Of a stretch of 39,603 bases of DNA, positions 1,772 through 37,132 are shown piece by piece. Position 1 is the stretch's first letter. Each line of letters starts with the position of its first letter. The notes below the pieces were generated by a model. The model saw only the letters and a program-made list of their open reading frames with translations. It was not told the DNA's origin and made no database searches. A program made the translations under genes and the position numbers. The DNA is from a virus (taxonomy: Duplodnaviria > Heunggongvirae > Uroviricota > Caudoviricetes). The stretch lies in IMG/VR virus record IMGVR_UViG_2778261067_000006, positions 1 through 39,603 of that record. One strand, 5' to 3'.

Positions 1772-1972
1772 TTACCCATTGGCGCGGCTTAAGAGCTTAT
1801 TTTTGAATTCACAATGGTCACGATATAACCATCTTGCTCGCCCGTGGATAACTTTGGCTTTTGGCAGGTCGCCGGACTTAATCCGGTCATAGATGAAGGT
1901 TTTACCGAAGCCAGTATCGGCCATGATGAATTTCAAATCAACCAGTGAATCAGGCTGTAGTTCGTGTTGCAT
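1772..1972 (-). CDS. AlpA-family helix-turn-helix protein (excisionase/regulator-like)
   Basis: 66-aa ORF with the pattern ...FIMADTGFGKTFIYDRIKSGDLP...RARWLYRD..., typical of AlpA/Xis-type small DNA-binding proteins. Lies next to the att-like fragments. Confidence 0.65.
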   Translation of the reverse strand: MQHELQPDSLVDLKFIMADTGFGKTFIYDRIKSGDLPKAKVIHGRARWLYRDHCEFKNKLLSRANG

Positions 1973-1990
1973 GAGTGCTATCTCCGAATA

Positions 1991-2005
1991 GGGAATCGAA
2001 CCTGC
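1991..2005 (-). other. tRNA T-arm-like fragment (GCAGGTTCGATTCC on the minus strand)
   Basis: 14-nt match to the T-stem/T-loop of the same tRNA-Arg-like sequence; the match breaks immediately after, so it is a fragment, not a gene. Confidence 0.35.
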
Positions 2006-2013
2006 AAATCAGG

Positions 2014-2039
2014 TAATAAAAAACCGCCATCAGGCGGTT
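2014..2039 (-). terminator. Rho-independent terminator at the end of the leftward early operon
   Basis: Minus strand reads AACCGCC-TGAT-GGCGGTT followed by a T-run: perfect 7-bp stem with a tetraloop. Confidence 0.6.
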
Positions 2040-2197
2040 TGGTGTTCTTTCAGTTCTTCAATTCGAATATTGGTTACGTCTGCATGTGCTATCTGCGCCC
2101 ATATCATCCAGTGGTTATAGCAGTCGTTGATGTCCTCTGCTTCGATAACCCTGTCGAATGGTTCTCCATTCCATTCACCTGTGACTCGGAAGTGCAT
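2033..2197 (-). CDS. Small hypothetical protein (55 aa), last gene of the leftward operon
   Basis: ATG preceded by GGAGATGATAA; stop overlaps the terminator stem. Below the ORF-track cutoff; hand-translated. Confidence 0.3.
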
Positions 2198-2269
2198 TTA
2201 TCATCTCCATAAAACAAAACTCGCCGTAGCGAGTTCAGATAAAAGAAATCCCCGCGAGTGCGAGGATTG

Positions 2270-2554
2270 TTATTCATTGCTGATATTCACCTTTATCGCG
2301 AACACCTTTACCAGTTTATCACCGAAGTGCGGATGTGTGATTGTCTTGATTTCATATCCGTCATACGGAATATCAATTCTGCGGCTGGAATCGTCGCGCT
2401 TCGGATATCCCTTTGTGATAATCAGGCGGTCATACTCCCGGAACATAATTCGCTTATTCCAGTAGTCATTACACAGGCGATACTCTTCCGTTTTCTCTCC
2501 GCGAATCATGGCATCGAAGTATTCACCTTTGACGGCAAGTTGCAGGTTAGCCAC
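2270..2554 (-). CDS. Hypothetical phage protein, possibly ASCH/PUA-like (DUF3850-like)
   Basis: 94-aa ORF whose start overlaps the upstream gene's end. The motif ...KGEYFDAMIRGEKTEEYR... resembles DUF3850/ASCH proteins from memory. Confidence 0.45.
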   Translation of the reverse strand: MANLQLAVKGEYFDAMIRGEKTEEYRLCNDYWNKRIMFREYDRLIITKGYPKRDDSSRRIDIPYDGYEIKTITHPHFGDKLVKVFAIKVNISNE

Positions 2555-3224
2555 GGTTAACCTCCTGCGGCGGTTCTGGTAGCGGCATCCAGAACAAGGC
2601 GTTCCCTAACCAGGATAAAGTGCCGTCGCTCAACTCCACGTATTCCCCTTGCACCTGTCCTGCCATATACTCACCGTGCTTTGAATAAATTAAAATCCAA
2701 TCATCTTGAGCGGGCATTCGCTCACTACAGCTTATCCAACCATCCGGAGTTACCTGAGAATTGCCATTTACCAAGTCAGCTCGAACATATAGCGTGTCAT
2801 CATGGTGCTGATTGTGGCTGCACCACGTTAATTCGCTTAACTCGCCATCTTCTGGCCATACTCCAGCTGTTTGCAGCCAGATATGGGCTGGCGCATCCTG
2901 GCAAGGTGTATTAACTGGAAACTTGTAAGTTTGGCTTACAGGTTGGCCTCCCTGAAGCATGGCGGCGCGGTGACACCAGATAATCCAGCCAAGCGCCATA
3001 TCCCATGCCATGTATTCTCTATCGCCATTTTTCGCCCTGCGGCGATCTACAGATTCCCCGAAACGCTTCTCCATAAATAATTCATAGGCTGCTCGTTCAT
3101 CCGATACTGCTGCCAGTGATGCCAGTGCAATTCGTGCCAGTTCCATTTGTTCGCCACGGGTAAGCCCGTTTCCAAGCGGATTTTTAATGAATAATTCGAT
3201 ACGTTCTTTGGTAATAGAATTCAT
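2547..3224 (-). CDS. Phage accessory protein with a C-terminal DUF551-like domain
   Basis: 225-aa ORF; the C-terminal W/P/G-rich segment (...DGWISCSERMPAQDDWILIY...WMPLPEPP) resembles DUF551 of lambdoid early regions. Confidence 0.5.
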   Translation of the reverse strand: MNSITKERIELFIKNPLGNGLTRGEQMELARIALASLAAVSDERAAYELFMEKRFGESVDRRRAKNGDREYMAWDMALGWIIWCHRAAMLQGGQPVSQTYKFPVNTPCQDAPAHIWLQTAGVWPEDGELSELTWCSHNQHHDDTLYVRADLVNGNSQVTPDGWISCSERMPAQDDWILIYSKHGEYMAGQVQGEYVELSDGTLSWLGNALFWMPLPEPPQEVNRG

Positions 3225-3736
3225 GCCGCGTTTCCTTCTTTCTTATTAACAATTACACCGTCATATATTTCATTAAGGTGCCCTCTCAACTCCATGCGCC
3301 TTAATGCAGATAACATGTAATCGCATTCAACCTGCTTATTTCCAGTAAATGGCTTATCGTCAGGATTACCCCAACAGCAATTACCCTTGGGCCACCCATG
3401 TACTTTCCGTACTCTTCCGTTAACAACGTGAAGTAATCCCCAGCCAGGTGGTAAATCCTCAATTGAAATAATTCCCGGCTCACTAATAAAGAATCGCCAG
3501 TCGCCCATTCCAAGAGACGGATTTTTACGAAAACGCTTTTTTCTATCTGCCAACAAGTCAGCACGAGAACATTTCGCCTCTATCAGGCATGATGCTGAAT
3601 TTCTGAATCCCATAGCATCTGGCTGTTCTCCGGTACTGGTTACAGCTATAAAGCGGTCATGAAAACAAACCTTGAACCCGTTGCGCTTAAGGAATTTGTA
3701 CGCAATCTGACAGAGTTCGCGGTGTGTTAACGCCAT
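3221..3736 (-). CDS. Hypothetical protein with a PD-(D/E)xK-like motif
   Basis: Start placed at the internal ATG (3736) with an AAGGAG SD 7 nt upstream, which also removes the overlap with the upstream gene. Motif ...PDAMG...(12 aa)...LIEAK... is suggestive only. Confidence 0.45.
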   Translation of the reverse strand: MALTHRELCQIAYKFLKRNGFKVCFHDRFIAVTSTGEQPDAMGFRNSASCLIEAKCSRADLLADRKKRFRKNPSLGMGDWRFFISEPGIISIEDLPPGWGLLHVVNGRVRKVHGWPKGNCCWGNPDDKPFTGNKQVECDYMLSALRRMELRGHLNEIYDGVIVNKKEGNAA

Positions 3737-3737
3737 A

Positions 3738-4259
3738 TCACTCTCCTTTGATGCGAATGCCAGTAGCGCGGATTGCATCGATGACTTCAGAAACTTTGTA
3801 TGCCATTACCGTTTGGTAATCATCGTGAAAATCTGTTCGATGAAGCATGCTGCTACGTTCCGGGAGCAGTATTTCCCGCTCCTCCAGTTCTGCTATGCGC
3901 TTACTTCCATCCGCGATTACTCCCTCGTAATACTCGCGTTGCTCGTTGAGTTTTGATTTTGCTTCCTCAAGCTCAACACGCAGTTTCCCTACCGTTAGCG
4001 CAATATCCTCGTTCTCCTGGTCACGGCGTTTGATGTATTGCTTGTTTCTTTCCCGTTCATCCAGCAGTGCCAAAGAAATCTTTGGATTAAAGGCAGCAAT
4101 AAATTCAGCGTTGTTTTTCAGAACGTGTTGCGCAATGGCCTGACTACTTAGTCGGACCTCATAACCACGTGCGCCACGGTGTGGTTTATATGAGTCCCAG
4201 TCTCCCCACGTTGCTTTCTCTGCCGCTTCACGCAGTGCCTGATAGTCAATCTTGTTCAT
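3738..4259 (-). CDS. Ead/Ea22-like early-region protein
   Basis: 173-aa acidic coiled-coil-rich ORF; N-terminus MNKIDYQALREAAEKATWGDW resembles the Ead/Ea22 family of lambdoid phages. Confidence 0.55.
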   Translation of the reverse strand: MNKIDYQALREAAEKATWGDWDSYKPHRGARGYEVRLSSQAIAQHVLKNNAEFIAAFNPKISLALLDERERNKQYIKRRDQENEDIALTVGKLRVELEEAKSKLNEQREYYEGVIADGSKRIAELEEREILLPERSSMLHRTDFHDDYQTVMAYKVSEVIDAIRATGIRIKGE

Positions 4260-4260
4260 G

Positions 4261-4563
4261 TCACATCACCCTGAATCCGTTGCATTTACGTAAGAAATCG
4301 CAGATGTAGCCCTTCATTTTTTCGTGCCAATCTCGATCATTCCCATTGCACCAACCATCAGGTGGAGTCCAGTTTTCTATCAGAGCAGCCATTTTCTTTG
4401 CTTTCGCCGGAGTAGCTGTTGCGGTATCGCAGTAATGACGAGTGTCAACCAAAGCATCCATACCATCGATATCAAGTACGCAAAACCATGTGTGATTCGG
4501 AATTCCTACAGGTGGTATTTGTTGCCCACGTCGACGTTTATCAATAAGATATACACTCACTGC
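4261..4563 (-). CDS. Hypothetical early-region protein
   Basis: ORF-track ORF 4261..4581; likely GTG start at 4563 preceded by AAGGAGG. Confidence 0.45.
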
Positions 4564-4720
4564 TTGCCTCCTTTGCGCCACATCGCATTCAGATATTTGT
4601 TTTGATTTACTGACGGAAAAGAATTTCTCTTAAGCAATTCCTCTCTCGATGGCATTGGCTTTACGCGTTTGCGAATAATCATTTCTGCCGGAAGAATGCC
4701 GGGATTGTATGCAAGTCATC

Positions 4721-5002
4721 TCATGATTTACTCTCCACGAACTGGTCAATAGCCATGCTAAGTGATACACCTAAAGTCTCGATATGCTGCTGAATATCCT
4801 GTAGCGTCTGCGCCTGAGATAACAGGATTTCACGGTTGCATAACTCTTTGACCAGATGCTCAAACTTGCTGTAATAACCGATACGGCTTAGTGTTTCTTT
4901 CCCTGCATTCTCGCCTTCTTTGATAATTCCTCTTTCACTAAGAATCAGGTCGTGTTTGGTTCCGGTAATAACGTATTTGCCGAGGTCGATGTTTAGCTTC
5001 AT
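4721..5002 (-). CDS. Hypothetical early-region protein (93 aa)
   Basis: Intact ORF in the leftward operon; no family recognised. Confidence 0.45.
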   Translation of the reverse strand: MKLNIDLGKYVITGTKHDLILSERGIIKEGENAGKETLSRIGYYSKFEHLVKELCNREILLSQAQTLQDIQQHIETLGVSLSMAIDQFVESKS

Positions 5003-5018
5003 TGTTAATTACTCCATG

Positions 5019-5333
5019 TTAATTTATTCGTATGCCTGCTCTTTCTTCATCGAGTTTTTTTAGCTTGTATCGCATAGCTCTTACTGAATAAATTGAGCGG
5101 CAGGTTGCAATTGCTATTTCTTCTGCGGAGAACTTACCGAAAAGTGATACTTCGGCTCTTGTCCATCGTCTTCCACGAAGTCGGCTAACAATGTCAGCGC
5201 CAATCCTTGTTGCTTTCGCCATTACTGCTTTTTCAGTCCTTTCCAGTTTTTCAGCGATAACTTCAACTGGCATTGTCGCCGCTACTTCGCGCAAGAAATC
5301 GACTTCCCATTTCTCCCAAGGAGTCTTTTTCAT
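5019..5333 (-). CDS. Hypothetical early-region protein (104 aa), basic, possibly DNA-binding
   Basis: Intact ORF in the operon; no family recognised. Confidence 0.45.
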   Translation of the reverse strand: MKKTPWEKWEVDFLREVAATMPVEVIAEKLERTEKAVMAKATRIGADIVSRLRGRRWTRAEVSLFGKFSAEEIAIATCRSIYSVRAMRYKLKKLDEERAGIRIN

Positions 5334-5344
5334 AGGCGATACCG

Positions 5345-5833
5345 TTATTTGATAAGAAGTGAAGGTTTCCCAACCTTGAGTTGAGCGCCTGGGATATTTA
5401 TTCCTGCTTTTAGTTGGTGCTTGATTGCCAACTTGTCGGCTTTAATTGTCGTTTCAAACTCAACGTATTCAGGAGGAAGGGCGCTTGAGTCGATGATTTC
5501 TACAGTTTCTGACGGTTTGCGGATTGTTACCTGGTGAATACCTGCTCGCATCTTTTTCTTGCCAACCATTTCAAGCGATGACGCTATATACGCCATAATG
5601 CTGTCAATCTTATTTTGAATTACTGCGGCTCGCTCATTTAGTGACTTTGCCTCTTCCTTGAGGCGTTCAGCATAACCAGATTCATTTTTAATGACGGAAA
5701 GAAGTTGCTCTATTTTATCGGTAAATTCTCCTTCCATGCCTTCTATTGTGTCAGCAATCATCTCTGGTTCTAAATCTGAATCCATCAATTTTGCGTATTC
5801 ATTGGCTATTTCATACAGTTTGCTCACTGGCAA
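5345..5833 (-). CDS. Gp157-like protein (Siphovirus_Gp157 family), recombination-module associated
   Basis: 162-aa acidic N-terminus/coiled-coil ORF immediately downstream of RecT; this family is commonly paired with RecT/Erf. Assigned from memory. Confidence 0.45.
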   Translation of the reverse strand: MPVSKLYEIANEYAKLMDSDLEPEMIADTIEGMEGEFTDKIEQLLSVIKNESGYAERLKEEAKSLNERAAVIQNKIDSIMAYIASSLEMVGKKKMRAGIHQVTIRKPSETVEIIDSSALPPEYVEFETTIKADKLAIKHQLKAGINIPGAQLKVGKPSLLIK

Positions 5834-6722
5834 CCTCCAGTTTCGCTTTGCATTCTATGTAAATGGCTTGTACGTTCTGCTGCAATTTCATTCCAGATGT
5901 CAGGCGATATGCTTCTGCAAAATATCGCTTCAAATCATCCATGTTTTCTGCCTGAGCCATTTCATCACAAAGAAGTTGTGCTTTATCCGTTATTTCCTGC
6001 TGGCGTTTCCGTTCATCTTCGCGGATATCTTCCTCTGATTTGTGCGGCATAACTGGTTCAGTCCACACACCTTCTTCTTCGTTTAGTACGTGAATAGCAC
6101 TATCAAGACGTGATGCCTTAGGCCAATACTTGCTTGCACGCTTTACGACCGTCTTTCGCGCCATCTCATTCCAGTGATTTACCCATGGTCCTTTATCGCT
6201 GAATGCCGCCTTGCTTGTTTTCCTTACAGCCTCAATTTCAGCCAGACTCATCTCTTCCGTTAGATAATCACCTGCTGGCGTCTTAACTGTGCAGTAAACG
6301 CCAACGATATCACCACGATCACCGAAGGCGTTGTATTTATGGGTTGGTGCTTTATCAAGCCCGTTTGACTCATAGGTATCGTTAGCATGAACAATTTTTG
6401 CCTGACCCCATGAGATAACACCAGACTCCATTGCAATATGGAGCAATCCCATATAGCTGATATCAAGGCAAACCATGCCATCGCGCGGAACCAGATAAGC
6501 CAGTTTGCTTGCAGGGTTTAAGGTGATGCCGATCGCCGCAACATTGATGATGGCGTTCTGTGCGCTGGTTGGATTTGCCAGTGCCGTTTTAGCCAGGTAA
6601 TCATTTTTCTGGAAATACTGAATTGCAAACTGGCTTTCCTTAGCCCATGTCACCGTATGTTCAGTCAATGCTCCGCAGAATAACTGCTCTTGCTGTTTAA
6701 CGAATTCAACGATATTGCTCAT
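5811..6722 (-). CDS. recT: RecT/Bet-family single-strand annealing recombinase
   Basis: 303-aa ORF; segment GPWVNHWNEMARKTVVKRASKYWP parallels RecT GPWVTHWEEMAKKTAIRRLFKYLP. Confidence 0.85.
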   Translation of the reverse strand: MSNIVEFVKQQEQLFCGALTEHTVTWAKESQFAIQYFQKNDYLAKTALANPTSAQNAIINVAAIGITLNPASKLAYLVPRDGMVCLDISYMGLLHIAMESGVISWGQAKIVHANDTYESNGLDKAPTHKYNAFGDRGDIVGVYCTVKTPAGDYLTEEMSLAEIEAVRKTSKAAFSDKGPWVNHWNEMARKTVVKRASKYWPKASRLDSAIHVLNEEEGVWTEPVMPHKSEEDIREDERKRQQEITDKAQLLCDEMAQAENMDDLKRYFAEAYRLTSGMKLQQNVQAIYIECKAKLEVASEQTV

Positions 6723-7030
6723 GCTGCTTCTCCAAAAATGTGTCTGCGTTTGAATATTGCGAAGGCATATTCAGCCTTAACTCTTTTGGTTATTGCATCC
6801 CAGAACCATTCAGCGGCTTTTTCCTGATAGTCACAGTCATCATCTTCCAGCCAGTCGATAGCGTCCTTAGTGTGTTCATCTGGTTTATATGAGCGAAGCA
6901 TTTCGCTTATTGGGTCGCAACGTTTGCAGAGGCGATCAACTTCACTGTTGATTCGTTCGTAATCTTCATCAGTAAAACTTGCGATTATTTGCGATATTTC
7001 ACGCTTATCATTCAGAGTCAGAATCATCAT
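6719..7030 (-). CDS. Hypothetical early-region protein (103 aa)
   Basis: Intact ORF; its stop overlaps the recT start (translational coupling). Confidence 0.45.
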   Translation of the reverse strand: MMILTLNDKREISQIIASFTDEDYERINSEVDRLCKRCDPISEMLRSYKPDEHTKDAIDWLEDDDCDYQEKAAEWFWDAITKRVKAEYAFAIFKRRHIFGEAA

Positions 7031-7111
7031 CTTTCTCCTGTTCTTTGTGCTGATTGAGCATTTTGTTCATCTGACGAATGAATTCTTCGTCTGACCAGTT
7101 ATCTGTAAAAC

Positions 7112-7282
7112 TCATGGGCGGCCTTGTTGTTTCAAAATATCCCAAAGCTTTTCGAGCAAACTTTTCATTCTTGGTTGTTTAAAGTCTGCTCCGGTTAAAA
7201 TATTCTTTCGTGAATGCTGTACCGATAAAATCGGGTTGAAAGGGCGAACCGATGCCGCCCCTGCAATAGCGAACTGTTGCAT
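7112..7282 (-). CDS. cIII: cIII-like protein (FtsH inhibitor-like)
   Basis: Start taken at the internal ATG (7282) with a GGAG SD. MQQFAIAG... and ...SLLEKLWDILKQQGRP resemble lambda CIII (MQYAIAG ... RLIDILNQPG). Position between N and the recombination module fits. Confidence 0.55.
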   Translation of the reverse strand: MQQFAIAGAASVRPFNPILSVQHSRKNILTGADFKQPRMKSLLEKLWDILKQQGRP

Positions 7283-7489
7283 AGGATGCTCCTTCTGTTT
7301 GATTGCATAACGAAAACGCCTCAAGTGAAGCGTTATTGGTATGCATATAAAAAAGCCATCACATAGGAGGGCAAAGAAGATTTCCAATAATCAGAACAAG
7401 TCGGCTCCTGTTTAGTTACGAGCGACATTGCTCCGTGTATTCACTCGTTGGAATGAATACACAGTGCAGTATTTATTCTGTTGTTTATG

Positions 7490-7517
7490 CTAAAAATAAA
7501 GGACGACTATGCGTCCT
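7490..7517 (-). terminator. Intrinsic terminator inside the leftward operon
   Basis: Minus strand: AGGACG-(loop)-CGTCCT followed by TTATTTTTAG, directly after the stop of the 7522..7887 gene. Confidence 0.5.
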
Positions 7518-7521
7518 GAAA

Positions 7522-7887
7522 TTACTTAACCAATGATGCTGCATATTCGATAAGGTAAAGTTTTGGAGCAAGCCAAATTTTCAGCCAGTCGAAATAATTG
7601 AAGAAAACAACAATAGAAGTAATCGCTATTCCTGATGTAACAAGTAGTGATAAAAGAACAATATCTGCATCATCTCCTTTATTCCATGCAAAAATCATCA
7701 GATAAACACACGCTATAATCACCAATACACAGATAGCCTGAATTCCAGCTGATGATACGGCGTGCCACATCAAAAGCTGATGGATGACATCAGGAATCTG
7801 TGCCTGGCTAAATGAAACAGCCGCGTCTATTCCATTGCTGGCTTTTTGCAGTAGTTCTACGAGAATCTTGTTTGCTTGTTCTTCCAT
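7522..7887 (-). CDS. Small integral membrane protein (121 aa) in the sieB-like position
   Basis: ORF with an AAGGTGA SD; soluble N-terminus followed by two to three hydrophobic helices; flanked on both sides by terminator hairpins. Confidence 0.55.
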   Translation of the reverse strand: MEEQANKILVELLQKASNGIDAAVSFSQAQIPDVIHQLLMWHAVSSAGIQAICVLVIIACVYLMIFAWNKGDDADIVLLSLLVTSGIAITSIVVFFNYFDWLKIWLAPKLYLIEYAASLVK

Positions 7888-7928
7888 ATATCACCTTGAT
7901 TGTAATAAGCATGAAATTATTTACGGCT

Positions 7929-7959
7929 AAAAAATAAAGGCCACCATCAGGCAGCCTTG
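7929..7959 (-). terminator. Intrinsic terminator after the ral-position gene
   Basis: Minus strand: 9-bp stem (two G-U pairs), loop TGAT, then TATTTTTTA; the loop overlaps the stop codon of the 7947..8198 ORF. Confidence 0.45.
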
Positions 7960-8198
7960 TTGTAAATGTTGCAGGTATCAAGTAAGTAATTAGATGGAGC
8001 GCCATAAATTATGAATTCATCGTTTGTCGGGTCCATCTCCATCTCTTGGCCTATTGCCATTCTTGCGTCAGTGTCATCAGCGGCGAAGCATAAAACAGCC
8101 CACGCACCCATTGTTTTAAAAAGAACTGCAATTGGCTGTGGTTTTACTGAATTTGCGTTAGCGCGAAAATCATAAATCGCACTTTCATGAAATTCCAT
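7947..8198 (-). CDS. Hypothetical early protein in the ral/gene-17 position
   Basis: 83-aa ORF immediately downstream of N; no family recognised with confidence. Confidence 0.45.
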   Translation of the reverse strand: MEFHESAIYDFRANANSVKPQPIAVLFKTMGAWAVLCFAADDTDARMAIGQEMEMDPTNDEFIIYGAPSNYLLDTCNIYNKAA

Positions 8199-8206
8199 AT
8201 ATCACC

Positions 8207-8506
8207 TCAAATAAGTGGTTTGCTGCCTAATTTCATTTTCTGGCGACCAACACAAGTCACACCCATTTCACTGCGTGGCTTGCGGTAGTAAATACGATTC
8301 TGTTTACTCTCGACTTCTTCTGTCTTCTTGCAGCGAAGGCTTCCGAGTGATGCTGCTTTGTCTGCTCTGACGCAACCAGAGAGCTTTAGCGCAATTTTTC
8401 GCGCCAGTCGCTGTTCTTGCATTGCCTGTTCACGTTGATCCTGTCTGCGTGCTCTGCGGCGATTTCTGGCGTTATCGTCAGCCAGATATGTAATGACTAC
8501 TGTCAT
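8207..8506 (-). CDS. N: Antitermination protein N
   Basis: N-terminal arginine-rich motif (NARNRRRARRQDQRE); C-terminus ...YYRKPRSEMGVTCVGRQKMKLGSKPLI parallels lambda N ...WYSKPGERGITCSGRQKIKGKSIPLI; GGAGGT SD. Confidence 0.85.
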   Translation of the reverse strand: MTVVITYLADDNARNRRRARRQDQREQAMQEQRLARKIALKLSGCVRADKAASLGSLRCKKTEEVESKQNRIYYRKPRSEMGVTCVGRQKMKLGSKPLI

Positions 8507-8648
8507 GTTGACCTCCGATGATTGACTTTGGCGATTGGATGGCCGGTGCTGAACTCCGGCTTATTTACAGGCACCTTGTTCTCCCGAAGCTCTCCTGCGC
8601 GCATCAGCCTGCGCATTCATCCAATCCCAAAGCCAACTACTCTTTGGT

Positions 8649-8689
8649 TCCCGCATTTCGGCGGGACAATCCCATCAATGTTAAAGAGC
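8649..8689 (-). promoter_or_regulatory. nutL (boxA GCTCTTTAACA plus boxB hairpin)
   Basis: Minus strand has the boxA consensus followed by the hairpin TCCCGC-CGAAAT-GCGGGA, in the N leader; an almost identical copy lies downstream of cro. Confidence 0.7.
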
Positions 8690-8736
8690 CTGCCAATCTG
8701 TTCCGTTTGGCTTCCAGCGTCCTGCTGATGGCTAAA

Positions 8737-8833
8737 GAATACTGTAGGTATTTTATTGTGTAAATACCCAAGGTATTTATTTTTGATGAAATAATGATAA
8801 ACAAATGAATACAAAGGATATTTATTTTTTCGC
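8737..8833 (-). promoter_or_regulatory. OL operators (three AATAC-N5-GTATT-type sites) with PL
   Basis: Sites at 8737-8753, 8762-8778 and 8817-8833 (the third degenerate). Minus strand has -35 TTTACA, a 17-nt spacer and -10 TATTCT overlapping them. Confidence 0.55.
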
Positions 8834-8908
8834 TGTCTGCTTGTTCAGTGATTTTTATGCGGGATATGTGAAGTGGATCCCGATAGCTATTGCTGCCGGG
8901 ATTATGGG

Positions 8909-9277
8909 TTAGTCAGCGAAGGTTAAGACGAGAATTACCTTAATGATGTCTGCTACAACAGACACGGCCATAGATAAACCAAAGACGATCCAAGCCACAG
9001 TGATGTCTTCACTACCATCGTATAGAGTTCCGTAATCACTGGTGTAAGGCGTAAATGTCGCGCCTTGATACAATAGGTATAAGCTTGATCCATAGAGGAT
9101 AAATGCAGATATCCCTTGTATTGCTATGATCACAAGAATCATGAAACGAGCTGATCTATGCGCCCAAGCCTGGCTTATTTTTTCTGATAGAGATTTCGCA
9201 ATAAAAGCATGCGCTAAGCCGTAAATTGTCGAGATTGCCAACATCGCAAAAAAGCTTGCTATAGCGGTTCCAACCAT
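8909..9277 (-). CDS. Small three-helix integral membrane protein encoded immediately downstream of cI
   Basis: ORF-track ORF 8909..9298 begins at a TTG overlapping the cI stop; an in-frame ATG at 9277 has an AAGGGG SD. Three predicted TM segments; same strand as cI with no terminator between. Confidence 0.55.
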   Translation of the reverse strand: MVGTAIASFFAMLAISTIYGLAHAFIAKSLSEKISQAWAHRSARFMILVIIAIQGISAFILYGSSLYLLYQGATFTPYTSDYGTLYDGSEDITVAWIVFGLSMAVSVVADIIKVILVLTFAD

Positions 9278-9294
9278 AATCGCCCCTTGCGTGA

Positions 9295-10011
9295 TCAAAC
9301 CAGCCTTAGTTTTGTCTCAATTGCAACGCCTATAATCTTGCAGTTTCCATTGATTGGCACGAGAGGCCATGCAGGATTAAGTCCCTTGAGGTATTTATTT
9401 CCGCCGTCGATTATCAGCTTCTTGAATGTTGCTTCGTTAGAGTCAGAAAGTTTTGCTATGACCAAGCTGCCGTTGATCGCCTCCCTTCCGGTATCGAAAA
9501 GAACGAATGTTCCCTCTGGAATGCTTAACCCAACCGGTGCCGTCATTGAATCACCTTCCACTTTAAGCCAAAACGCATTACCTTGAATATGCGCGTCAGA
9601 CTCAAGCCAAACATCTATGTCTTTAATGGTGTATGGTTCGCATGCTTCACACCACGAGCCAGCCTGGATACTGCTTAACACCGGATACCTCTTTCCTGCT
9701 CTGTATTCCCCTGCATACCTTACGTTGGCATCGCTCTTAAGGCTTTCTGCCTGTTCTGCAACCTTGGCAGCAATTGACTGGCTAAAATCAGCAATTGAGA
9801 CTTGCAACAATCGCGCAAAACCAGATGCAACCTCAACGTTTAGCGCGTTTCTGCCATTAAGATAATGCCCTACCGCTCCTTGGGTGATACCCAGTTCATC
9901 AGCGATTGAGTATTGGGTTATTCCCAATTCTTTCTTTTTTGACTCATACAAAGCCTTAAGCCGCTTAGCGTCTTCGAGCTGTTCTGTCGTCAGTGATTTT
10001 TTATTTTCCAT
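9295..10011 (-). CDS. cI: CI repressor (lambda-type, HTH N-terminus and LexA-like autocleavage C-terminus)
   Basis: 238 aa; ...LTTEQLEDAKRLKALYESKKKELGITQ... parallels lambda CI ...[27 protein letters not shown]...; C-terminal ...FWLKVEGDSMTAP... carries the S24 peptidase motif. Confidence 0.9.
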   Translation of the reverse strand: MENKKSLTTEQLEDAKRLKALYESKKKELGITQYSIADELGITQGAVGHYLNGRNALNVEVASGFARLLQVSIADFSQSIAAKVAEQAESLKSDANVRYAGEYRAGKRYPVLSSIQAGSWCEACEPYTIKDIDVWLESDAHIQGNAFWLKVEGDSMTAPVGLSIPEGTFVLFDTGREAINGSLVIAKLSDSNEATFKKLIIDGGNKYLKGLNPAWPLVPINGNCKIIGVAIETKLRLV

Positions 10012-13226: not shown

Positions 13227-13258
13227 AGGCCTGCTGGTAATCGCAGGCCTTTTTATTT
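13227..13258 (+). terminator. Intrinsic terminator (tR2-like) between replication genes and nin region
   Basis: AGGCCTGC-(8-nt loop)-GCAGGCCT followed by TTTTTATTT. Confidence 0.6.
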
Positions 13259-13274
13259 GGGGGAGAGGGAAGTC

Positions 13275-13715
13275 ATGAAAAAACTAACCTTTGAAATTCG
13301 ATCTCCAGCACATCAGCAAAACGCTATTCACGCAGTACAGCAAATCCTTCCAGACCCAACCAAACCAATCGTAGTAACCATTCAGGAACGCAACCGCAGC
13401 TTAGACCAGAATCGAAAGCTTTGGGCTTGCCTTGGTGACGTCTCTCGTCAGGTTGAATGGCATGGTCGCTGGCTGGATGCAGAAAGCTGGAAGTGTGTGT
13501 TTACCGCAGCATTAAAGCAGCAGGACGTTGTTCCTAACCTTGCCGGGAATGGCTTTGTGGTAATAGGCCAGTCAACCAGCAGGATGCGTGTAGGCGAATT
13601 TGCGGAGCTATTAGAGCTTATACAGGCATTCGGTACAGAGCGTGGCGTTAAGTGGTCAGACGAAGCGAGACTGGCTCTGGAGTGGAAAGCGAGATGGGGA
13701 GATCGGGCTGCATGA
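13275..13715 (+). CDS. ninB: NinB (Orf-family recombination mediator)
   Basis: Sequence MKKLTFEIRSPAHQQNAIHAVQQILPDP... matches lambda NinB as I recall it. Confidence 0.85.
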   Translation: MKKLTFEIRSPAHQQNAIHAVQQILPDPTKPIVVTIQERNRSLDQNRKLWACLGDVSRQVEWHGRWLDAESWKCVFTAALKQQDVVPNLAGNGFVVIGQSTSRMRVGEFAELLELIQAFGTERGVKWSDEARLALEWKARWGDRAA

Positions 13716-14239
13716 CTATCAAATCAAATACGCCAGCACACGACAAGGACTGCTGGCAAACGCCGCTTTGGCTTTTTGATGCACTGGATATTGAGTTTGG
13801 ATTCTGGCTGGATTCGGCAGCGAGCGACAAAAATGCTCTGTGTGCTCACTGGCTAACTGAGGCCGACGACGCGCTCAATTCTGAGTGGGTAAGCCACGGT
13901 GCAATCTGGAATAACCCACCGTACAGCAATATCAGGCCGTGGGTGGAAAAAGCCGCTGAGCAGTGCATACAACAGCGACAGACGGTAGTTATGCTTGTGC
14001 CAGAGGATATGTCAGTCGGATGGTTCAGCAAGGCTCTGGAGAGTGTCGACGAAGTTCGCATTATCACTGATGGACGGATTAATTTTATCGAACCATCGAC
14101 AGGGTTGGAGAAGAAGGGAAACAGCAAAGGCTCCATGCTGCTGATTTGGCGACCGTTCATCAGTCCTCGACGGATGTTTACTACCGTATCCAAAGCGGCA
14201 TTGATGGCGATCGGGCAGGGCGTCAGGAGAGCGGCATGA
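13712..14239 (+). CDS. Phage-type DNA N6-adenine methyltransferase (Dam family)
   Basis: WNNPPY motif, [13 protein letters not shown]-terminal motif; ATGA overlap with ninB stop. Confidence 0.75.
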
Positions 14240-14967: not shown

Positions 14968-15682
14968 GTTAATAAATGGCAACGCCATCAAAATGACAAG
15001 CATTGAAATCGCTGAGTTGGTGGGAAGTCGTCATGACAAGGTGAAACAATCTATTGAACGACTGGCGGCTCGAGGTGTGATCCGAAATCCCCCAATGGTG
15101 GTTTTCGAAAAAATCAATAACTTAGGATTACTTCGTGGCGTAGAGGCTTACGTTTTTGAGGGCGAACAAGGTAAGCGAGACAGTATTGTCGTTGTAGCCC
15201 AGTTGTCGCCGGAATTCACCGCTCGTCTTGTTGATCGTTGGCGAGAGCTTGAAGAAACTACGGTTAATATCCCCAAAACGCTACCGGAAGCGTTGCGCCT
15301 TGCTGCTGATCTTGCTGAGAAGAAAATGCAACTGGAAAACCAGCTCGCAATTGCCGCACCTAAAGTTGAGTTTGCCGATCGCGTTGGCGAGGCCAGCGGA
15401 ATTTTGATTGGAAACTTTGCAAAGGTTGTTGGAATTGGTCCAAACAAACTGTTTGCGTGGATGCGCGATCACAAAATCCTTATTGCTTCAGGTTCCCGGC
15501 GCAATGTGCCAATGCAGGAATATATGGATCGCGGCTATTTCACAGTGAAAGAAACAGCGATCAACACAAATCACGGGATACAGATATCGTTCACCACAAA
15601 AATCACCGGGCGTGGTCAACAGTGGCTGACCAGAAAGCTGCTCGATAACGGAATGCTGAAAGTAACAGGGGAGGCTGCTTAA
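14960..15682 (+). CDS. Antirepressor-like regulatory protein (Rha-like N-terminus plus KilA-C/ANT-like C-terminus)
   Basis: 240 aa; N-terminal ...NAIKMTSIEIAELVGSRHDKV... resembles Rha/pRha; domain assignment from memory. Confidence 0.6.
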   Translation: MNELINGNAIKMTSIEIAELVGSRHDKVKQSIERLAARGVIRNPPMVVFEKINNLGLLRGVEAYVFEGEQGKRDSIVVVAQLSPEFTARLVDRWRELEETTVNIPKTLPEALRLAADLAEKKMQLENQLAIAAPKVEFADRVGEASGILIGNFAKVVGIGPNKLFAWMRDHKILIASGSRRNVPMQEYMDRGYFTVKETAINTNHGIQISFTTKITGRGQQWLTRKLLDNGMLKVTGEAA

Positions 15683-15972
15683 TGGCTAACCGACGCAAAG
15701 AAGCACGCGGCAGAGAATGCCAGGTACGTATTTACGGCGTATGCAATGGCAACCCTGAAACTACAGTTCTGGCACATTACCGGATGGCTGGAATTTGCGG
15801 AACGGGAATGAAGCCTGACGACCTGATCGGTGCATGGGCTTGTAGTGCGTGTCACGATGAAATCGACCGACGCACCCATAATCTCGACAACAAAGACGCC
15901 AGACTTTACCACCTCGAAGGCGTGATCAGAACGCAGGCGATACTGCTGAGGGAGGGGAAGATTAAGTCATGA
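15682..15972 (+). CDS. YbcO-like protein (DUF1364), Cys/His-rich
   Basis: 96 aa; very similar to my recollection of DLP12 YbcO (…ARGRECQVRIPGVCNGNPET…LAH…); sits upstream of rusA as in DLP12. Confidence 0.6.
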   Translation: MANRRKEARGRECQVRIYGVCNGNPETTVLAHYRMAGICGTGMKPDDLIGAWACSACHDEIDRRTHNLDNKDARLYHLEGVIRTQAILLREGKIKS

Positions 15973-20299: not shown

Positions 20300-20308
20300 G
20301 AATCCTCT

Positions 20309-20487
20309 ATGACAAACGTCGTTGATCTTGGTAATGAGAAGAAATTCCCAATTACTCAAGAGCTATACGAGCGGCTGGAAAGCGTCATCCATGATTACGA
20401 TGGTGAAATCAGTTTATGCGAGGCGATTGGTACACTCGAATTGCTGAAGCAGTCACTGATTGAAGGCGCGAAAGAGTCCTCAGCCTG
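20309..20487 (+). CDS. Hypothetical protein (59 aa)
   Basis: Hand-translated MTNVVDLGNEKKFPITQELYERLESVIHDYDGEISLCEAIGTLELLKQSLIEGAKESSA; below ORF-track cutoff. Confidence 0.35.
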
Positions 20488-20505
20488 AAATAACAACTAA
20501 GTGAG

Positions 20506-21000
20506 ATGAATATGGCAGCACCAAAGGGCAACCGATTTTGGGAGGCCCGCAGTAGTCATGGGCGAAACCCTAAATTCGAATCGCCTGAGGCGCTGTGGGC
20601 TGCTTGTTGTGAATACTTCGAGTGGGTAGAAGCTAACCCGCTATGGGAGATGAAGGCGTTCTCGTATCAGGGTGAAGTGATACAAGAGCCTATCGCCAAG
20701 ATGCGAGCGATGACTATTACAGGCCTCACTCTGTTCATTGATGTGACGCTTGAAACATGGCGCACATATCGCCTGCGAGAAGATTTATCTGAAGTCGTTA
20801 CGCGAGCAGAGCAGGTCATCTACGACCAGAAATTCTCTGGCGCAGCCGCTGACCTTCTCAACGCTAACATCATCGCCCGTGATTTGGGCCTCAAAGAGCA
20901 GTCGCAAGTTGAAGACGTGACACCTGATAAGGGAGATCGCGATAAGCGACGCTCTCGTATCAAGGAGCTATTCAACCGTGGAACTGGACGCGATTCTTGA
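20506..21000 (+). CDS. Terminase small subunit
   Basis: 164 aa, immediately upstream of and overlapping the large terminase; N-terminus [18 protein letters not shown] recalled as a small-terminase family. Confidence 0.65.
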
Positions 21001-22477
21001 TAACCTGAGCGACGAAGAGCAAATCGAATTGCTCGAGCTACTCGAAGAAGAAGAGAACTACCGGAACACACACCTGCTATATGAATTTACGCCATACAGC
21101 AAACAGCGTGAGTTCATCGACGCCGGGCATGACTATCCAGAGCGCTGTTTTATGGCTGGTAACCAGCTTGGTAAGTCATTTACTGGTGCTGCTGAAGTCG
21201 CGTTTCACCTTACCGGGCGTTATCCGGGAACAAAAGGCTATCCTGCTGATGGTAAATATGGCGGTGAGTGGAAAGGTAAGCGTTTCTATGAGCCTGTTGT
21301 CTTCTGGATTGGCGGCGAGACAAACGAGACGGTAACCAAAACGACTCAACGCATCCTGTGCGGTCGTATTGAAGAGAATGATGAACCGGGTTACGGTTCA
21401 ATACCGAAAGAGGACATCATTAGCTGGAAGAAGTCTCCTTTCTTTCCGAACCTTGTTGATCATCTTCTGGTTAAGCATCACACGGCTGATGGCGTTGAAG
21501 ATGGCATTTCAATCTGCTACTTCAAACCATACTCGCAAGGCCGTGCACGCTGGCAGGGTGACACAATCCACGGCGTGTGGTTTGACGAAGAACCACCATA
21601 CAGCATTTATGGCGAAGGGCTTACCCGTACCAACAAATACGGGCAATTCTCAATTCTGACGTTTACCCCGCTGATGGGGATGTCTGACGTTGTTACCAAG
21701 TTCCTGAAGAACCCCAGCAAGTCGCAGAAAGTGGTCAACATGACCATCTATGACGCTGAGCACTATACCGAAGAGCAGAAAGAGCAAATCATCGCATCCT
21801 ATCCCGAGCATGAGAGAGAGGCGCGTGCTCGCGGTATTCCTACGATGGGTAGCGGGCGAATCTTCCAGATACCGGAAGAGACGATTAAGTGTCAGCCGTT
21901 CGAGTGTCCTGATCACTTCTACGTAATTGGCGGGATGGATTTCGGATGGGATCACCCGCAGGCGCAGGTTCAGCTTTGGTGGGATAAGGACGCAGACACA
22001 ATCTACGTTTCACGCGTGTGGAAGGCGAAAGAAAAAACAGCCGTTCAGGCGTGGGGATCCGTTAAATCATGGGCGCATAAAGTGCCAACTGCATGGCCTC
22101 ATGACGGAAACCAGCATGAGAAGGGCGGCGGTGAGCAGCTCAAAGGGCAGTACGCGGACGCTGGTTTTATGATGTTGCAGGAGCATGCGACATGGCCTGA
22201 TGGCGGTAATGCTGTTGAACCTGGCATCACTGAATTGCGCGACATGATGCTTGATGGTCGCTTCAAAGTATTCAACACCTGTGAGCCATTCTTTGAGGAG
22301 TTCCGCCTCTATCACCGTGATGAAAACGGGAAGATCGTCAAGCTTAACGACGACGTTCTCTCAGCCGTTCGCTATGCATACATGATGCGCCGCTTCGCCA
22401 AAATGATGCGCGACATCAAAAAACCAAAAGAGAAAAAGATACCAGCCCCAATCAGGCCCATCGCACGGAGAACTTAA
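20978..22477 (+). CDS. Terminase large subunit
   Basis: 499 aa with ATPase and nuclease regions; same length as P22 gp2; GTG start overlapping the small subunit. Confidence 0.85.
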
Positions 22478-24643
22478 ATGGCCGACGAAAACAGACTCAA
22501 TTCCATTCTGTGTAAGTTTGACGCGGACTGGATGGCGAGCGATGAAGCCAGAACCGAGGCGACAAATGACCTGTATTTTAGCCGAGTGTCGCAATGGGAT
22601 GACTGGCTATCAAACTACACTACCCTGCAATATCGCGGACAATTCGATGTTGTTCGCCCGGTGGTCAGGAAACTGGTCGCAGAGATGCGCCGGAACCCTA
22701 TCGACGTTCTCTTCCGACCCAAAGACGGCGCTAATCCTGATGCTGCCGATGTGTTGATGGGAATGTATCGTACTGATATGCGCCATAACACGGCAAAAAT
22801 TGCCGTTAACGTTGGCGTTCGTGAGCAGATAGAGTCCGGCGTTGGTGCATGGCGTCTGGTCACCCAGTACGAAGACAACGACCCAACAAGCAACAATCAG
22901 GTAATCCGACGCCTGCCAATCCATGAAGCCTGCTCACACGTCATATGGGACGCCAACAGCAAGCAGATGGATAAGAGCGATGCTAAGCACTGCACGGTGA
23001 TTAACGCTTTGTCACGCAATGGCTGGAAAGAGTTCGCAGAGGATTACGGCATTGATCCTGACACGCTGCCATCTTTCCAGAATCCGAACGATACATGGCT
23101 GTTTCCGTGGGTATCGAATGATGTCGTCTACGTCGCTGAGTATTACGAGGTAGAAGAGAAGAAGGAGAAAGTCTTCATCTACCGCGACCCGCTGACAGGT
23201 GAGCCGGTCAGCTATTACCAGCAGGATATCAAAGACGTCATCGACGACCTGGCTAATCGTGGATTCATTAAGGTAGCAGAGCGTAAGGTCAAGCGTCGTC
23301 GTGTGTATAAGTCGATCATCACCTGCACGCAGATACTGAAAGACCGCGAGAAGATAGCAGGAGAGCATATTCCAATCGTTCCAGTGTATGGTGAATGGTC
23401 ATTCGCTGGTGACAAGGAGTGCTACGAAGGAGTGGTAAGGCTGACGAAAGACGGTCAACGCCTTCGTAACATGATCATGTCATTCAACGCCGATATCGTT
23501 GCTCGTTCACCGAAGAAGAAACCGACCTTCTTCCCTGAGCAAATCGAAGGCTACGAATACATGTACGGAGGAAATGATGACTATCCGTACTATCTGCAGA
23601 ACAAGACCGATGAAAACGGTAACGACCTGCCGATTGGTCCAATCTCCTACATGGAAAACCCTGAAGTGCCGCAAGCCAACGCTTACATGCTTGAGGCTGC
23701 CACCAACGCAGTGAAAGAGGTAGCTAGTCTTGGCGTGGATGCGCAGGCGGCAAATGGTCAGGTCGCTTTCGATACCGTCAATCAACTGAACATGCGGGCA
23801 GACCTTGAGACATACGTGTTTCAGGATAACCTGGCTACCGCAATGCGACGTGATGGCGAGATTTATGCCTCAATGGTCAACGATATTTATGACGTTCCTC
23901 GCCATGTAACGCTGACTCTTGAAGACGGAAGCGAGAAAGACGTTCAACTCTACGCGCAAGTTGTAGATTACCAGTCCGGCAATGTGGTCACACTCAACGA
24001 CATTCGCGGTCGCTATGAGTGCTATACAGACGTTGGACCATCCTTCCAGAGTATGAAGGAACAGAACCGCGCAGAGATTCAGGAGTTGCTCACTAAGGTT
24101 CCGCAAGGTACTCCAGAGTTCCAGATGCTGATGCTGCAATACTTTACGCTGCTTGACGGTAAAGGCGTCGAGATGATGCGAGAGTACGCGAACAAGCAAC
24201 TGGTGATGATGGGGCTGAAGAAACCAGAAACACCTGAAGAGATGGAGATGGTACAGCAGGCTCAACAGCAGCCGCAGCATCCATCAGCAGAGCAAATTCA
24301 GGCGCAGGGTATCCTTCTGCAAGGTCAGGCTGAATTGCTCAAGGCAGAGAACCAACAGGCGCAGATTCAGGTTGAAGCCGCCAAGGTTGAAGCCCAAAAC
24401 CAACTCAACGCCGCGAAGATTGCAGAAATCTTCAACAATATGGACCTCGACAAGCAGGAAGAACTGCGTGAGTACCTCAAGCTCGTAGGTCAATTCCAGC
24501 AACAGCGCAGCAAAGACGCTCGCGCTAACGCTGAGCTGCTTCTTAAAGATGCAGACCAGACTCATTCACAACGCATGGATTTCGCGAATCTTATGCGTCA
24601 AGTTCAAATCCCCTCCGGCGGAGTAGCCGAGACACCTCAATAA
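22478..24643 (+). CDS. Portal protein (P22 gp1-type)
   Basis: 721 aa, collinear with P22 portal as I recall it (MAD.ENRL.SIL..FDADW.ASDEAR ... NAELLLK ... [10 protein letters not shown]). Confidence 0.95.
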
Positions 24644-24656
24644 GAGAGAGTTAATC

Positions 24657-26863: not shown

Positions 26864-26871
26864 TAACCAGA

Positions 26872-26893
26872 GGGAGCTTCGGCTCCCTTTTTT
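26872..26893 (+). terminator. Intrinsic terminator downstream of the coat gene
   Basis: GGGAGC-TTCG-GCTCCC followed by TTTTTT. Confidence 0.6.
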
Positions 26894-26907
26894 ATCTGGA
26901 GACAAGC

Positions 26908-27138
26908 ATGACACACATGATTTTTCGTCATGGAGACATGAAGAAGTGGAAAGGCGTTGGATACGACTTTGAAATCGTGAAAGCCGAAGAGCTTCAGGAA
27001 TATCTGGATGCTGGTTGGTTTTCACATCCTGATGACCTTTTGAAGGATGTTGCAGAGCCAGAGCCAGAAGAAAAACAGCGTAAAAAGCCTAGTCGAAAAC
27101 CTAAGGCGGCAGCAGATGAACCTGACAACGAAGGGTGA
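26908..27138 (+). CDS. Hypothetical small protein between coat and gp4
   Basis: 76 aa with GGAGA SD, acidic/Lys-rich C-terminus; by position matches the small ORF found here in Sf6-like genomes. Confidence 0.4.
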
Positions 27139-31016: not shown

Positions 31017-31025
31017 GGTGGGAAT

Positions 31026-34282: not shown

Positions 34283-34295
34283 AAATAAGATATAA

Positions 34296-34781: not shown

Positions 34782-34851
34782 ATGGTTAACTCTCCTTAGT
34801 TTTTCACAGGATATCATGAAGGCAATGCCATTTTAGCCGGAAACTAGATTT

Positions 34852-37069: not shown

Positions 37070-37132
37070 TATGTATTGATTGTGGTTGCATTGTAATTAC
37101 ATCTATTTTTATATTTACGCATATATTCTTAA

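Follow-up and report, generated by a model that had tools for sequence, protein, structure and literature searches.

Within the 39,603-nucleotide stretch of DNA that was analyzed as a whole (the window), an E. coli prophage of the P22-like, headful-packaging type carries a homologous-recombination (Rec) module with the composition p103-recT-gp157(-p104) in its early-left (pL) operon. All genes of the module are encoded on the minus strand. The module begins with a 103-aa ORF, p103 (6719-7030; phrog_3486, E 1e-58), which may actually start at its second ATG (7027), followed by a RecT-family single-strand annealing protein of 303 aa (5811-6722; PF03837, TIGR00616, and phrog_148), a Gp157-family protein of 160 aa (5345-5827; PF05565 and phrog_253), and p104, a basic protein of 104 aa with two HTH-like repeats (5019-5333; phrog_11492 and phrog_323). 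The stop codon of p103 and the start codon of recT overlap as ATGA, and the 3' end of recT overlaps the start of gp157 by 17 nt, both of which fit co-translation. In the ORF list, gp157 extends over 5345-5833 from a TTG at 5833, but the GTG at 5827 is most likely where translation begins, because this codon is preceded by GGAGG and yields the 160 aa found in all homologs.

Several neighboring features help to delimit the module. DNA homology to phages HK620 and N7 ends at 4725 and restarts at 7066 (N7) or 7259 (HK620), and the gene of a 93-aa DUF5405 protein (4721-5002, minus strand; PF17399, E 1.7e-5; phrog_154) falls in the stretch differing from these two phages, both of which carry other Rec modules. 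At the other side, a small ORF between cIII and p103 (7008-7145, minus strand; phrog_17766, E 1e-15; phrog_2123, E 4e-10) marks the right-hand mosaic junction: its N-terminal residues are similar to HK620 hkaM, of the arf-position "recombinase" PHROG, and it includes a 50-bp match to N7 at 7066-7115. Outside of the Rec module, the same operon encodes a 185-aa protein with a PD-(D/E)xK motif recognized from conserved residues (3221-3778, minus strand), while the nin region of the prophage encodes a NinB/Orf recombination mediator (13257-13715, plus strand; PF05772, E 2.3e-54), listed here for context only. The location of int and xis at opposite prophage ends, beside cscB, was considered as a possible oddity and rejected, as it is the normal KplE1/HK620-type layout.

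An earlier note on this DNA had named recT and gp157 from the letters alone, and both calls are correct, since each protein scores above the curated Pfam cut-offs: RecT matches PF03837 with 114 bits (cut-off 24, E 8.9e-33) and Gp157 matches PF05565 with 124.6 bits (cut-off 28.6, E 4.8e-36) over profile positions 1-162 of 162. RecT is also recognized by TIGR00616 (83.8 bits, cut-off 52.65) and phrog_148 (E 1.6e-92). With the Rac RecT equivalog NF007351 it yields 104.2 bits, below the cut-off of 296; by these profile scores, it is a RecT-family member, not an ortholog of Rac RecT. The annealing core makes up the N-terminal ~215 aa of RecT and is followed by a C-terminal domain of ~85 aa, and the protein is of the SAP-4 type in the scheme of Zheng, Casjens, Davidson, Amundsen & Smith (2025, Genome Res, PMC12315714).

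An exonuclease-free RecT-Gp157 module is already known from phage HK140, in which the genes, their order, and their position are the same as in the prophage, with no substantive difference between the two. Positions 4576-7510 are 97.5% identical to HK140 DNA, and the proteins of the module match their counterparts at 97-98% identity (p103, 97%; RecT and HK140 gp41, 98%; Gp157, 97%), with p104 at 99%. Zheng et al. list HK140 as "SAP-4 + MuGam, no nuclease, no SSB", assign 46 phages to an "anti-RecBCD + SAP only" class, and count 84 of 246 lambdoid Rec modules as having no nuclease (PMC12315714). By this census, the assumption in the earlier note that RecT normally comes with an exonuclease is overstated for lambdoid phages. 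The ~100-aa leader p103 and p104 are not named as module members in the main text of that paper, and the shuffling of partner domains is explicitly left unanalyzed there (PMC12315714).

The statement in the earlier note that no exonuclease lies nearby holds. A YqaJ/RecE/Exo profile search of the neighboring ORFs was empty, and more broadly there was no match to lambda Exo, YqaJ, or RecE in the left-operon ORFs at 1772-10011, in the scanned ORFs of the replication and nin region, or among the lysis genes and small ORFs. Individual scanning covered the ORFs outside of 20506-34282 and outside of the tailspike ORF at 35240-37069; the segment 20300-37100 consists mostly of P22-like structural genes with ~95% DNA identity to known records, the best of which covers 69%. 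Thus, among the scanned ORFs, there is no adjacent lambda-Exo/YqaJ/RecE gene of the kind that defines the two-component type, i.e. SSAP plus 5'-3' exonuclease. Similarly, 80 near-identical E. coli loci from IMG/VR were searched by tblastn, seeded with lambda Exo, phi80 Exo, and two proteins each of YqaJ and ExoVIII, and gave no match up to 4.5 kb from the module. In the sense of the "P22 functional class", the left operon encodes a SAP, namely RecT, and gave no nuclease or SSB family match; the anti-RecBCD gene of this class would presumably be gp157, which depends upon its assignment as MuGam. The window has no Chi sites (0.87 expected by chance), and while this is the published pattern for phages with an anti-RecBCD function, it is not informative alone here.

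When examining the distribution of the module, it is evident that it is neither rare nor confined to a single species. A match is present in 1120 of 5426 complete E. coli genomes, with at least 80% of the query found in 265. recT and gp157 occur together in all 80 of the IMG/VR loci, the same arrangement is found in phages mEpX1, Kapi1, Gally, and Louie, and the p103-recT-gp157 trio also exists in Serratia, Enterobacter, and metagenomic contigs. A second set comprised 17 diverse loci with the module. The leader p103 is the first Rec-module gene in every locus inspected, and it heads RecT-Gp157, RecT-Exo/YqaJ, ExoVIII-RecT, ExoVIII-p189, and p167-YqaJ modules. In one instance, an identical p103 protein precedes either a 298-aa RecT with Gp157 or a 311-aa RecT with YqaJ. 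In SEN22, exactly recT plus gp157 has been swapped at the gene boundaries for ExoVIII and a 189-aa protein, and p104 was kept despite this replacement. Either Gp157 or YqaJ/Exo fills the position that follows recT. The leader itself does not replace the nuclease, as modules with Exo, YqaJ, or ExoVIII begin with it too; we have rejected it as an exonuclease substitute on the basis of this co-occurrence, and with it the suggestion in the earlier note that a small unknown protein substitutes. At the other end of the block, p104 usually comes last in the E. coli lineage and is present in 79 of the 80 IMG/VR loci. It shows weak homology to Mu gp9 (BLASTP, E 5e-5), which is encoded directly upstream of Mu gam.

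The exchange of partner genes is mirrored within RecT. Between Gp157-linked and Exo-linked forms, the annealing cores are 50-61% identical, whereas their C-terminal domains share just 18-21% identity; within the Gp157-linked set, the C-terminal domains are 48-69% identical. The C-terminal domain of ~85 residues is specific to Gp157-linked RecTs and co-varies with the partner gene. Lambda Exo is the docking partner of the Red-beta C-terminal domain, and by analogy, the co-variation suggests that RecT may likewise dock on Gp157. Joint inheritance in mosaic exchange, without any physical contact, could also produce this pattern.

Among other recombination systems, the P22 Erf/Abc1/Abc2/Arf system resembles the module in having an annealing protein and an anti-RecBCD function with no phage exonuclease, in the same operon position of a phage with the same P22-like headful packaging. 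However, the proteins are unrelated: Erf is not a RecT protein, Abc2 binds RecC and is not a Gam-like end binder, and the prophage has no homolog of Abc2 or Erf. From lambda Red (gam-bet-exo) and phi80 (gamL-rec-exo), the module shares the succession of a leader, an annealing protein, and a third gene downstream of cIII and kil, and the phi80 Rec protein is 61% identical to the core of the prophage RecT. The difference lies in the third gene, which is Exo in those phages and Gp157 here, and in the RecT C-terminal domain. Rac RecET has a RecT-family protein in common with the prophage, which is without RecE. Phages of Firmicutes also have Gp157-family genes alongside annealing-protein genes, with gp157 and Mu-gam-like genes occurring next to erf and sak4 (Steczkiewicz et al. 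2021, PMC8093625). In those phages, gp157 is upstream of erf-ssb or sak4 and RecT is found with YqaJ or DUF3799, whereas here gp157 is downstream of recT. Mu Gam, a Ku-like nuclease inhibitor that binds DNA ends, is similar in size to Gp157 and both adjoin a gp9-like gene, although Gp157 belongs to a RecT module and Mu Gam to a transposing phage.

Based upon these features, we consider the odds to lean slightly toward an HK140-type Rec module in which RecT anneals, Gp157 protects DNA ends, and resection is supplied by the host. RecT would anneal single-stranded DNA, while Gp157 would bind double-strand DNA ends and shield them from RecBCD. With no phage 5'-3' exonuclease, the single-stranded DNA for RecT must be host-derived, and it could arise from host nucleases and helicases acting upon protected ends or from replication forks; reliance upon host nucleases, one of the two options raised in the earlier note, is the most plausible reading of the missing exonuclease. 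Such a module would presumably serve to circularize the terminally redundant injected genome and to feed rolling-circle replication. Should Gp157 act like Mu Gam in blocking ends, their subsequent resection is a gap in this account.

Gp157 is most likely a distant Mu-Gam-type DNA-end binder. It matches phrog_253, annotated as "Mu Gam-like end protection", and the anti-RecBCD protein of HK140 is classed as MuGam by Zheng et al., who folded Rec-module proteins with AlphaFold 3 (PMC12315714). Its match to PF07352 (Phage_Mu_Gam) is sub-threshold (16.7 bits versus a cut-off of 28.3, E 0.007), but it is colinear and nearly full length (40-161 to 28-147 of 149), and 8 of 26 homologs give it as well. 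It is conceivable, though in our estimation improbable, that Gp157 is not Gam-like at all and instead assists RecT as a coiled-coil accessory protein or mediator, for instance by displacing SSB or by bridging DNA, with no effect on RecBCD. Our own comparisons leave room for such a view: an alignment of Gp157 with Mu Gam by hhalign gave 1.2% probability, and the AF2 model, although poor (pLDDT 68, pTM 0.36), has a 67-residue helix and, after it, a small beta domain; matches of this low-confidence model in BFVD were uninformative, being Gp157-family or unnamed proteins only. A PDB sequence search with Gp157 was empty, and our literature search found no experiment on any Gp157-family protein. Nevertheless, the recurrent Mu Gam match, the fact that PHROGs and Zheng et al. 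both group the protein with Mu Gam, and the pairing with a Mu gp9-like gene, as occurs for gam in Mu, all argue against a purely accessory function. A competing view with a better claim, though still a doubtful one, assigns the inhibition of RecBCD to p103, either instead of or besides Gp157, with Gp157 then loading RecT or tethering ends. p103 directly follows cIII and a kil-position ORF, which is the position of lambda gam and phi80 gamL, and it is of comparable size (~100 aa; GamS, 98 aa; GamL, 93 aa), acidic (pI 4.7), and all-helical in its model (AF2, pLDDT 89.6, five helices). In a Foldseek search of this model against 350,542 PDB chains, lambda GamS chains ranked 2, 3, 7, and 13 (TM 0.36-0.52, all E >1), among them 5mbv_A (prob 0.69, TM 0.51, rmsd 2.0 over 69 columns, E >1), and there is a local motif likeness between p103 DDDCDYQEKAAE and lambda DDDVEFQERMAE, with Q69 invariant in the p103 family. 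Moreover, lambda Gam and phi80 GamL are absent from the 17 diverse and 80 near-identical p103 loci, Abc2 is absent from the 17 diverse loci in which it was sought, and p103-RecT-Exo modules would otherwise be without an anti-RecBCD gene. Against this, the Foldseek E values all exceed 1, no Gam or GamL appeared in the top 50 of a BFVD search, none of 45 members of the p103 family matches Pfam Gam, and p103 shows no significant sequence or profile similarity to lambda Gam or phi80 GamL, with hhalign remaining <5% even when an 87-sequence profile was used. In addition, the p103 model has its long helix at the C-terminus, whereas that of GamS is N-terminal. p103 likewise has no Pfam, NCBIfam, or PDB sequence match, and its family, conserved to ~17% identity, numbers 69 representatives among 1.84 billion proteins.

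The two further explanations bear upon the missing exonuclease, and both seem far less credible. The earlier note had pointed to the 185-aa protein as the only nuclease-like candidate, and as far as its motif is concerned, this stands: H19, E51-x-P53-D54, E67-x-K69, and S71-R72 are invariant among six sequences down to 34% identity, thus conforming to a PD-(D/E)xK signature, and two of its homologs have weak MmcB-like (E 0.0018) and UPF0102 (E 0.053) matches. Its gene also belongs to the operon of the Rec module, 2 kb farther downstream. That it would be the exonuclease working with RecT is, however, a very remote prospect, and we have rejected it as a RecT partner on its distribution. It is linked to the RecT module in just 3 of the 80 near-identical loci and 1 of the 17 diverse loci, it is absent from HK140, and it is widespread elsewhere, being encoded in 643 phage records that include P7, Stx phages, Vibrio phages, and Ackermannviridae; in three inspected virulent Vibrio/Ackermannviridae phages, its homolog adjoins primase or helicase genes. 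It has no PDB sequence or NCBIfam match and no similarity to YqaJ, Exo, or RecE. Just as implausible is a decayed RecT-Exo remnant, deprived of its exonuclease and functionally impaired, even though Exo or YqaJ does follow recT in sister modules that share the leader gene. The arrangement is intact, with overlapping frames, in the plaque-forming phages HK140, mEpX1, Kapi1, Gally, and Louie, and it is kept across genera at 56-79% protein identity. Furthermore, Gp157 fills the exonuclease slot with no gap left, and RecT has its dedicated C-terminal domain.

Exonuclease-free Rec modules make up about a third of lambdoid modules according to Zheng et al. (PMC12315714), and in that respect the module itself is ordinary. 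What the present analysis adds is the slot equivalence between Gp157 and YqaJ/Exo, the co-variation of the RecT C-terminal domain, and the presence of p103 at the gam position. p103 may be an overlooked component common to a range of enterobacterial Rec modules, and we tentatively entertain the possibility that it is a lambda-Gam-like RecBCD inhibitor of a third type, divergent in sequence; at the least, it is a candidate small protein family, located where gam would be, with a possible effect on RecBCD. If p103 is indeed such an inhibitor, phages classed as having no anti-RecBCD gene, such as SEN22 and Edno5 in Zheng et al. (PMC12315714), would possess one, as would ENT47670 and phiEt88, in which none was seen here. 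In this case, the HK140-type module would consist of two anti-RecBCD devices plus a RecT with a C-terminal domain tuned to Gp157. The occurrence of the same leader with either RecT-Gp157 or RecT-YqaJ, together with a RecT C-terminal domain that tracks the partner, constitutes a natural experiment on partner choice by annealing proteins. Lastly, RecT and Gp157, possibly with p103, might be tried as a compact cassette for dsDNA recombineering without a phage exonuclease.

The RecT module of this prophage is an example of an exonuclease-free recombination module, an arrangement that is both known and common, and its exact combination of genes is already on record. It begins with p103, a 103-aa leader protein (6719-7030; phrog_3486) with zero matches in Pfam and NCBIfam scans, followed by RecT (5811-6722; PF03837, E 8.9e-33; TIGR00616, 83.8 bits) and Gp157 (5345-5833 in the ORF list; PF05565, E 4.8e-36; phrog_253, 'Mu Gam-like end protection'), which upholds the earlier note in its calls of RecT and a Gp157-like partner. 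In the DNA, the stop codon of p103 and the start codon of recT share an overlapping ATGA, and recT runs 17 nt into gp157. The likeliest gp157 start is a GTG at 5827, with GGAGG ahead of it, yielding 160 aa as in all homologs. Window positions 4576-7510 are 97.5% identical to phage HK140, and the module genes also occur in mEpX1, Kapi1, Gally, Louie and others. The 2.1-kb block 5019-7145 is labeled 'recombinase RecT | siphovirus Gp157 family protein' in RefSeq. Of 5426 complete E. coli genomes, 1120 contain a match to it, which in 265 of them spans at least 80% of the block.

The absence of an exonuclease beside recT was likewise confirmed, as searches against Pfam, PHROG and NCBIfam gave no hit to lambda Exo, YqaJ or RecE for the left operon, the lysis genes, the replication and nin region or the other small ORFs. 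This ORF-by-ORF scan covered the ORFs lying outside both 20506-34282 and 35240-37069 (the tailspike ORF); across most of 20300-37100 the DNA matches P22-like structural genes (about 95% identity), and 69% of this stretch is covered by the best record. Outside the module, the only nuclease-type matches in the scanned ORFs were a YbcO-family putative nuclease of the nin region (15682-15972, plus strand) and a 185-aa PD-(D/E)xK-motif protein (3221-3778, minus strand); NinB/Orf (13257-13715) is present as well. The interpretation placed on this absence was right only in part. In lambdoid phages, RecT need not have an exonuclease beside it: the survey of Rec modules in 325 such phages by Zheng, Casjens, Davidson, Amundsen and Smith (Genome Res 2025, PMC12315714) reports the nuclease missing from 84 of 246 modules. 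The same survey describes a P22 functional class of 46 phages, whose modules hold solely an anti-RecBCD gene and a single-strand annealing protein (SAP), and states that a Rec module is present in almost all headful packagers.

The window itself holds a complete E. coli prophage of the P22-like, headful-packaging kind. Its early-left operon runs leftwards on the minus strand from the cI-like repressor (9295-10011) through an N-like gene (8207-8506), a cIII-like gene (within 7112-7387), a small ORF (7008-7145), p103, RecT and Gp157. The integrase (38446-39603) and a TorI-type excisionase (1772-1972) lie at opposite prophage ends, the usual layout of the KplE1/HK620/Sf6 type, and the HK620 record places attP between int and torI. 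The host gene cscB (1-1248) flanks the prophage and abuts its xis end, a cscB-torI junction common to 368 E. coli genomes. The prophage also encodes a Dam-type N6-adenine methyltransferase (13652-14239, plus strand) and, in a low-GC (31%) stretch adjoining int, an O-antigen acetyltransferase (37171-38232, minus strand).

Neither of the substitutes proposed for the exonuclease was borne out. The PD-(D/E)xK motif of the 185-aa protein had been called correctly: H19, E51-x-P53-D54, E67-x-K69 and S71-R72 are invariant in homologs down to 34% identity, two of which weakly match the PD-(D/E)xK families MmcB-like (E 0.0018) and UPF0102. As the module's nuclease, it is rejected for lack of linkage, being absent from HK140 and present in only 1 of 17 diverse loci that bear the module and in 3 of the 80 near-identical ones from IMG/VR, while its family occurs in 643 varied phage records, including P7, Stx phages, Vibrio phages and Ackermannviridae. 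A homolog of about 205 aa adjoins primase or helicase genes in three virulent Vibrio or Ackermannviridae phages inspected, a setting that hints at a function in replication or repair with no relation to RecT. The small protein p103 is also rejected as an exonuclease substitute because the two co-occur. The p103 family is narrow, with 69 representatives (50% identity level) in a set of 1.84 billion proteins, each of them about 100 aa long, and always supplies the first Rec-module gene, followed by RecT-Gp157 (E. coli, Serratia, Enterobacter and metagenomic contigs), RecT-Exo/YqaJ (ENT47670, Midgardsormr38 and locus L096), ExoVIII-RecT (phiEt88), ExoVIII and a 189-aa protein (SEN22), or a 167-aa protein and YqaJ (loci L098-L100). 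That 167-aa protein, phrog_21613 (3800-4303 of L098), occupies the usual place of RecT, has zero Pfam matches and is a candidate for a so far unrecognized annealing protein. In the family alignment, Q69 of p103 is invariant and a C-terminal tail, ...(E/D)(E/A)(A/V)A-COOH, is conserved in nearly all members; these could form a docking motif.

Two swaps show that the slot following the annealing protein is filled either by Gp157 or by the exonuclease. One and the same p103 sequence (P0172) is followed on two contigs by RecT (298 aa) and Gp157 and, on another, by RecT (311 aa) and YqaJ. SEN22 retains p103 (91% DNA identity) and the basic 104-aa protein p104 (83%), and its ExoVIII and 189-aa protein (L007 4809-6199) stand for exactly window 5334-6718, recT plus gp157, with junctions at gene boundaries. 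The SEN22 type is classed in the survey as SSB plus nuclease with no SAP (PMC12315714), so its 189-aa protein (phrog_11517) may be worth a look as an annealing protein. Homology to HK620 (Sak4-SSB-Abc2) and N7 (Erf-SSB-Abc2) ends at 4725 and returns at 7259 and 7066, respectively; the exchanged cassette therefore comprises DUF5405, p104, Gp157, RecT and p103. The right-hand mosaic junction with N7 (7066-7115) falls inside the small ORF 7008-7145, whose N-terminal residues hit the PHROG to which HK620 hkaM, an arf-position 'recombinase', belongs.

RecT varies with its partner. Among ten aligned RecTs, those linked to Gp157 share 79-83% identity with the window RecT over the N-terminal core (~215 aa) and 48-69% over the C-terminal ~85 aa; the corresponding values for Exo/YqaJ-linked RecTs are 50-61% and 18-21%, and the phi80 protein is a mosaic. 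The C-terminal domain of Red-beta binds lambda Exo, and by analogy the co-variation suggests a contact between RecT and Gp157. It is the 'shuffling of partner interaction domains' suspected, and left unanalyzed, by Zheng et al. (PMC12315714).

That Gp157 is Mu Gam-like is less sure than its annotations imply. The window Gp157 and 8 of 26 homologs align colinearly with PF07352 over almost its whole length, but below threshold (best E 0.001), hhalign against Mu Gam alone was insignificant, and a poor AF2 model (pLDDT 68; a 67-residue helix and a small beta domain) drew uninformative BFVD matches. The survey, which folded Rec-module proteins with AlphaFold 3, classes the HK140 anti-RecBCD protein as MuGam (PMC12315714). 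A literature search turned up no experiments on proteins of the Gp157 family. Next to gp157, p104 (5019-5333, minus strand), in which an HTH-like unit is repeated internally, shows weak homology to Mu gp9 (BLASTP E 5e-5), and gp9 lies immediately upstream of gam in Mu (L013 1983-2826); thus, the pairing of a Gam-like and a gp9-like gene recurs in two unrelated phage types.

It is also conceivable, if rather unlikely, that p103 is a divergent Gam-type RecBCD inhibitor. It stands at the gam position (lambda order cIII-kil-gam-bet-exo; phi80 order gamL-rec-exo), is acidic (pI 4.7) and about the size of GamS or GamL, has a confidently predicted all-helical structure (pLDDT 89.6) and carries DDDCDYQEKAAE, a local likeness to lambda DDDVEFQERMAE. 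Its loci are free of lambda Gam and phi80 GamL (0 of 97 examined) and of Abc2 (0 of the 17 diverse loci, where alone it was tested). A Foldseek search of the PDB ranked lambda GamS chains 2, 3, 7 and 13, among them 5mbv_A (prob 0.69, TM 0.51, rmsd 2.0 over 69 columns), but all E-values exceeded 1, BFVD yielded no Gam, and profile comparisons with Gam and GamL gave probabilities below 5% throughout.

In the most likely scenario, the pL operon would express p103, RecT and Gp157 together upon injection or induction. Gp157, perhaps with p103, would deny RecBCD access to rolling-circle tails and to the ends of the linear, terminally redundant genome. RecT, presumably docked on Gp157, would anneal complementary single strands, permitting genome circularization and recombination-dependent replication; because a phage exonuclease is absent, these strands would come from host enzymes or replication forks. 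Chi sites (GCTGGTGG) are absent from both strands of the whole window, which fits the published trend for anti-RecBCD phages but is uninformative alone because only about 0.9 (0.87) would be expected by chance. With the module type already known, the remaining interest lies in the leader protein p103 and the partner-specific tail of RecT.
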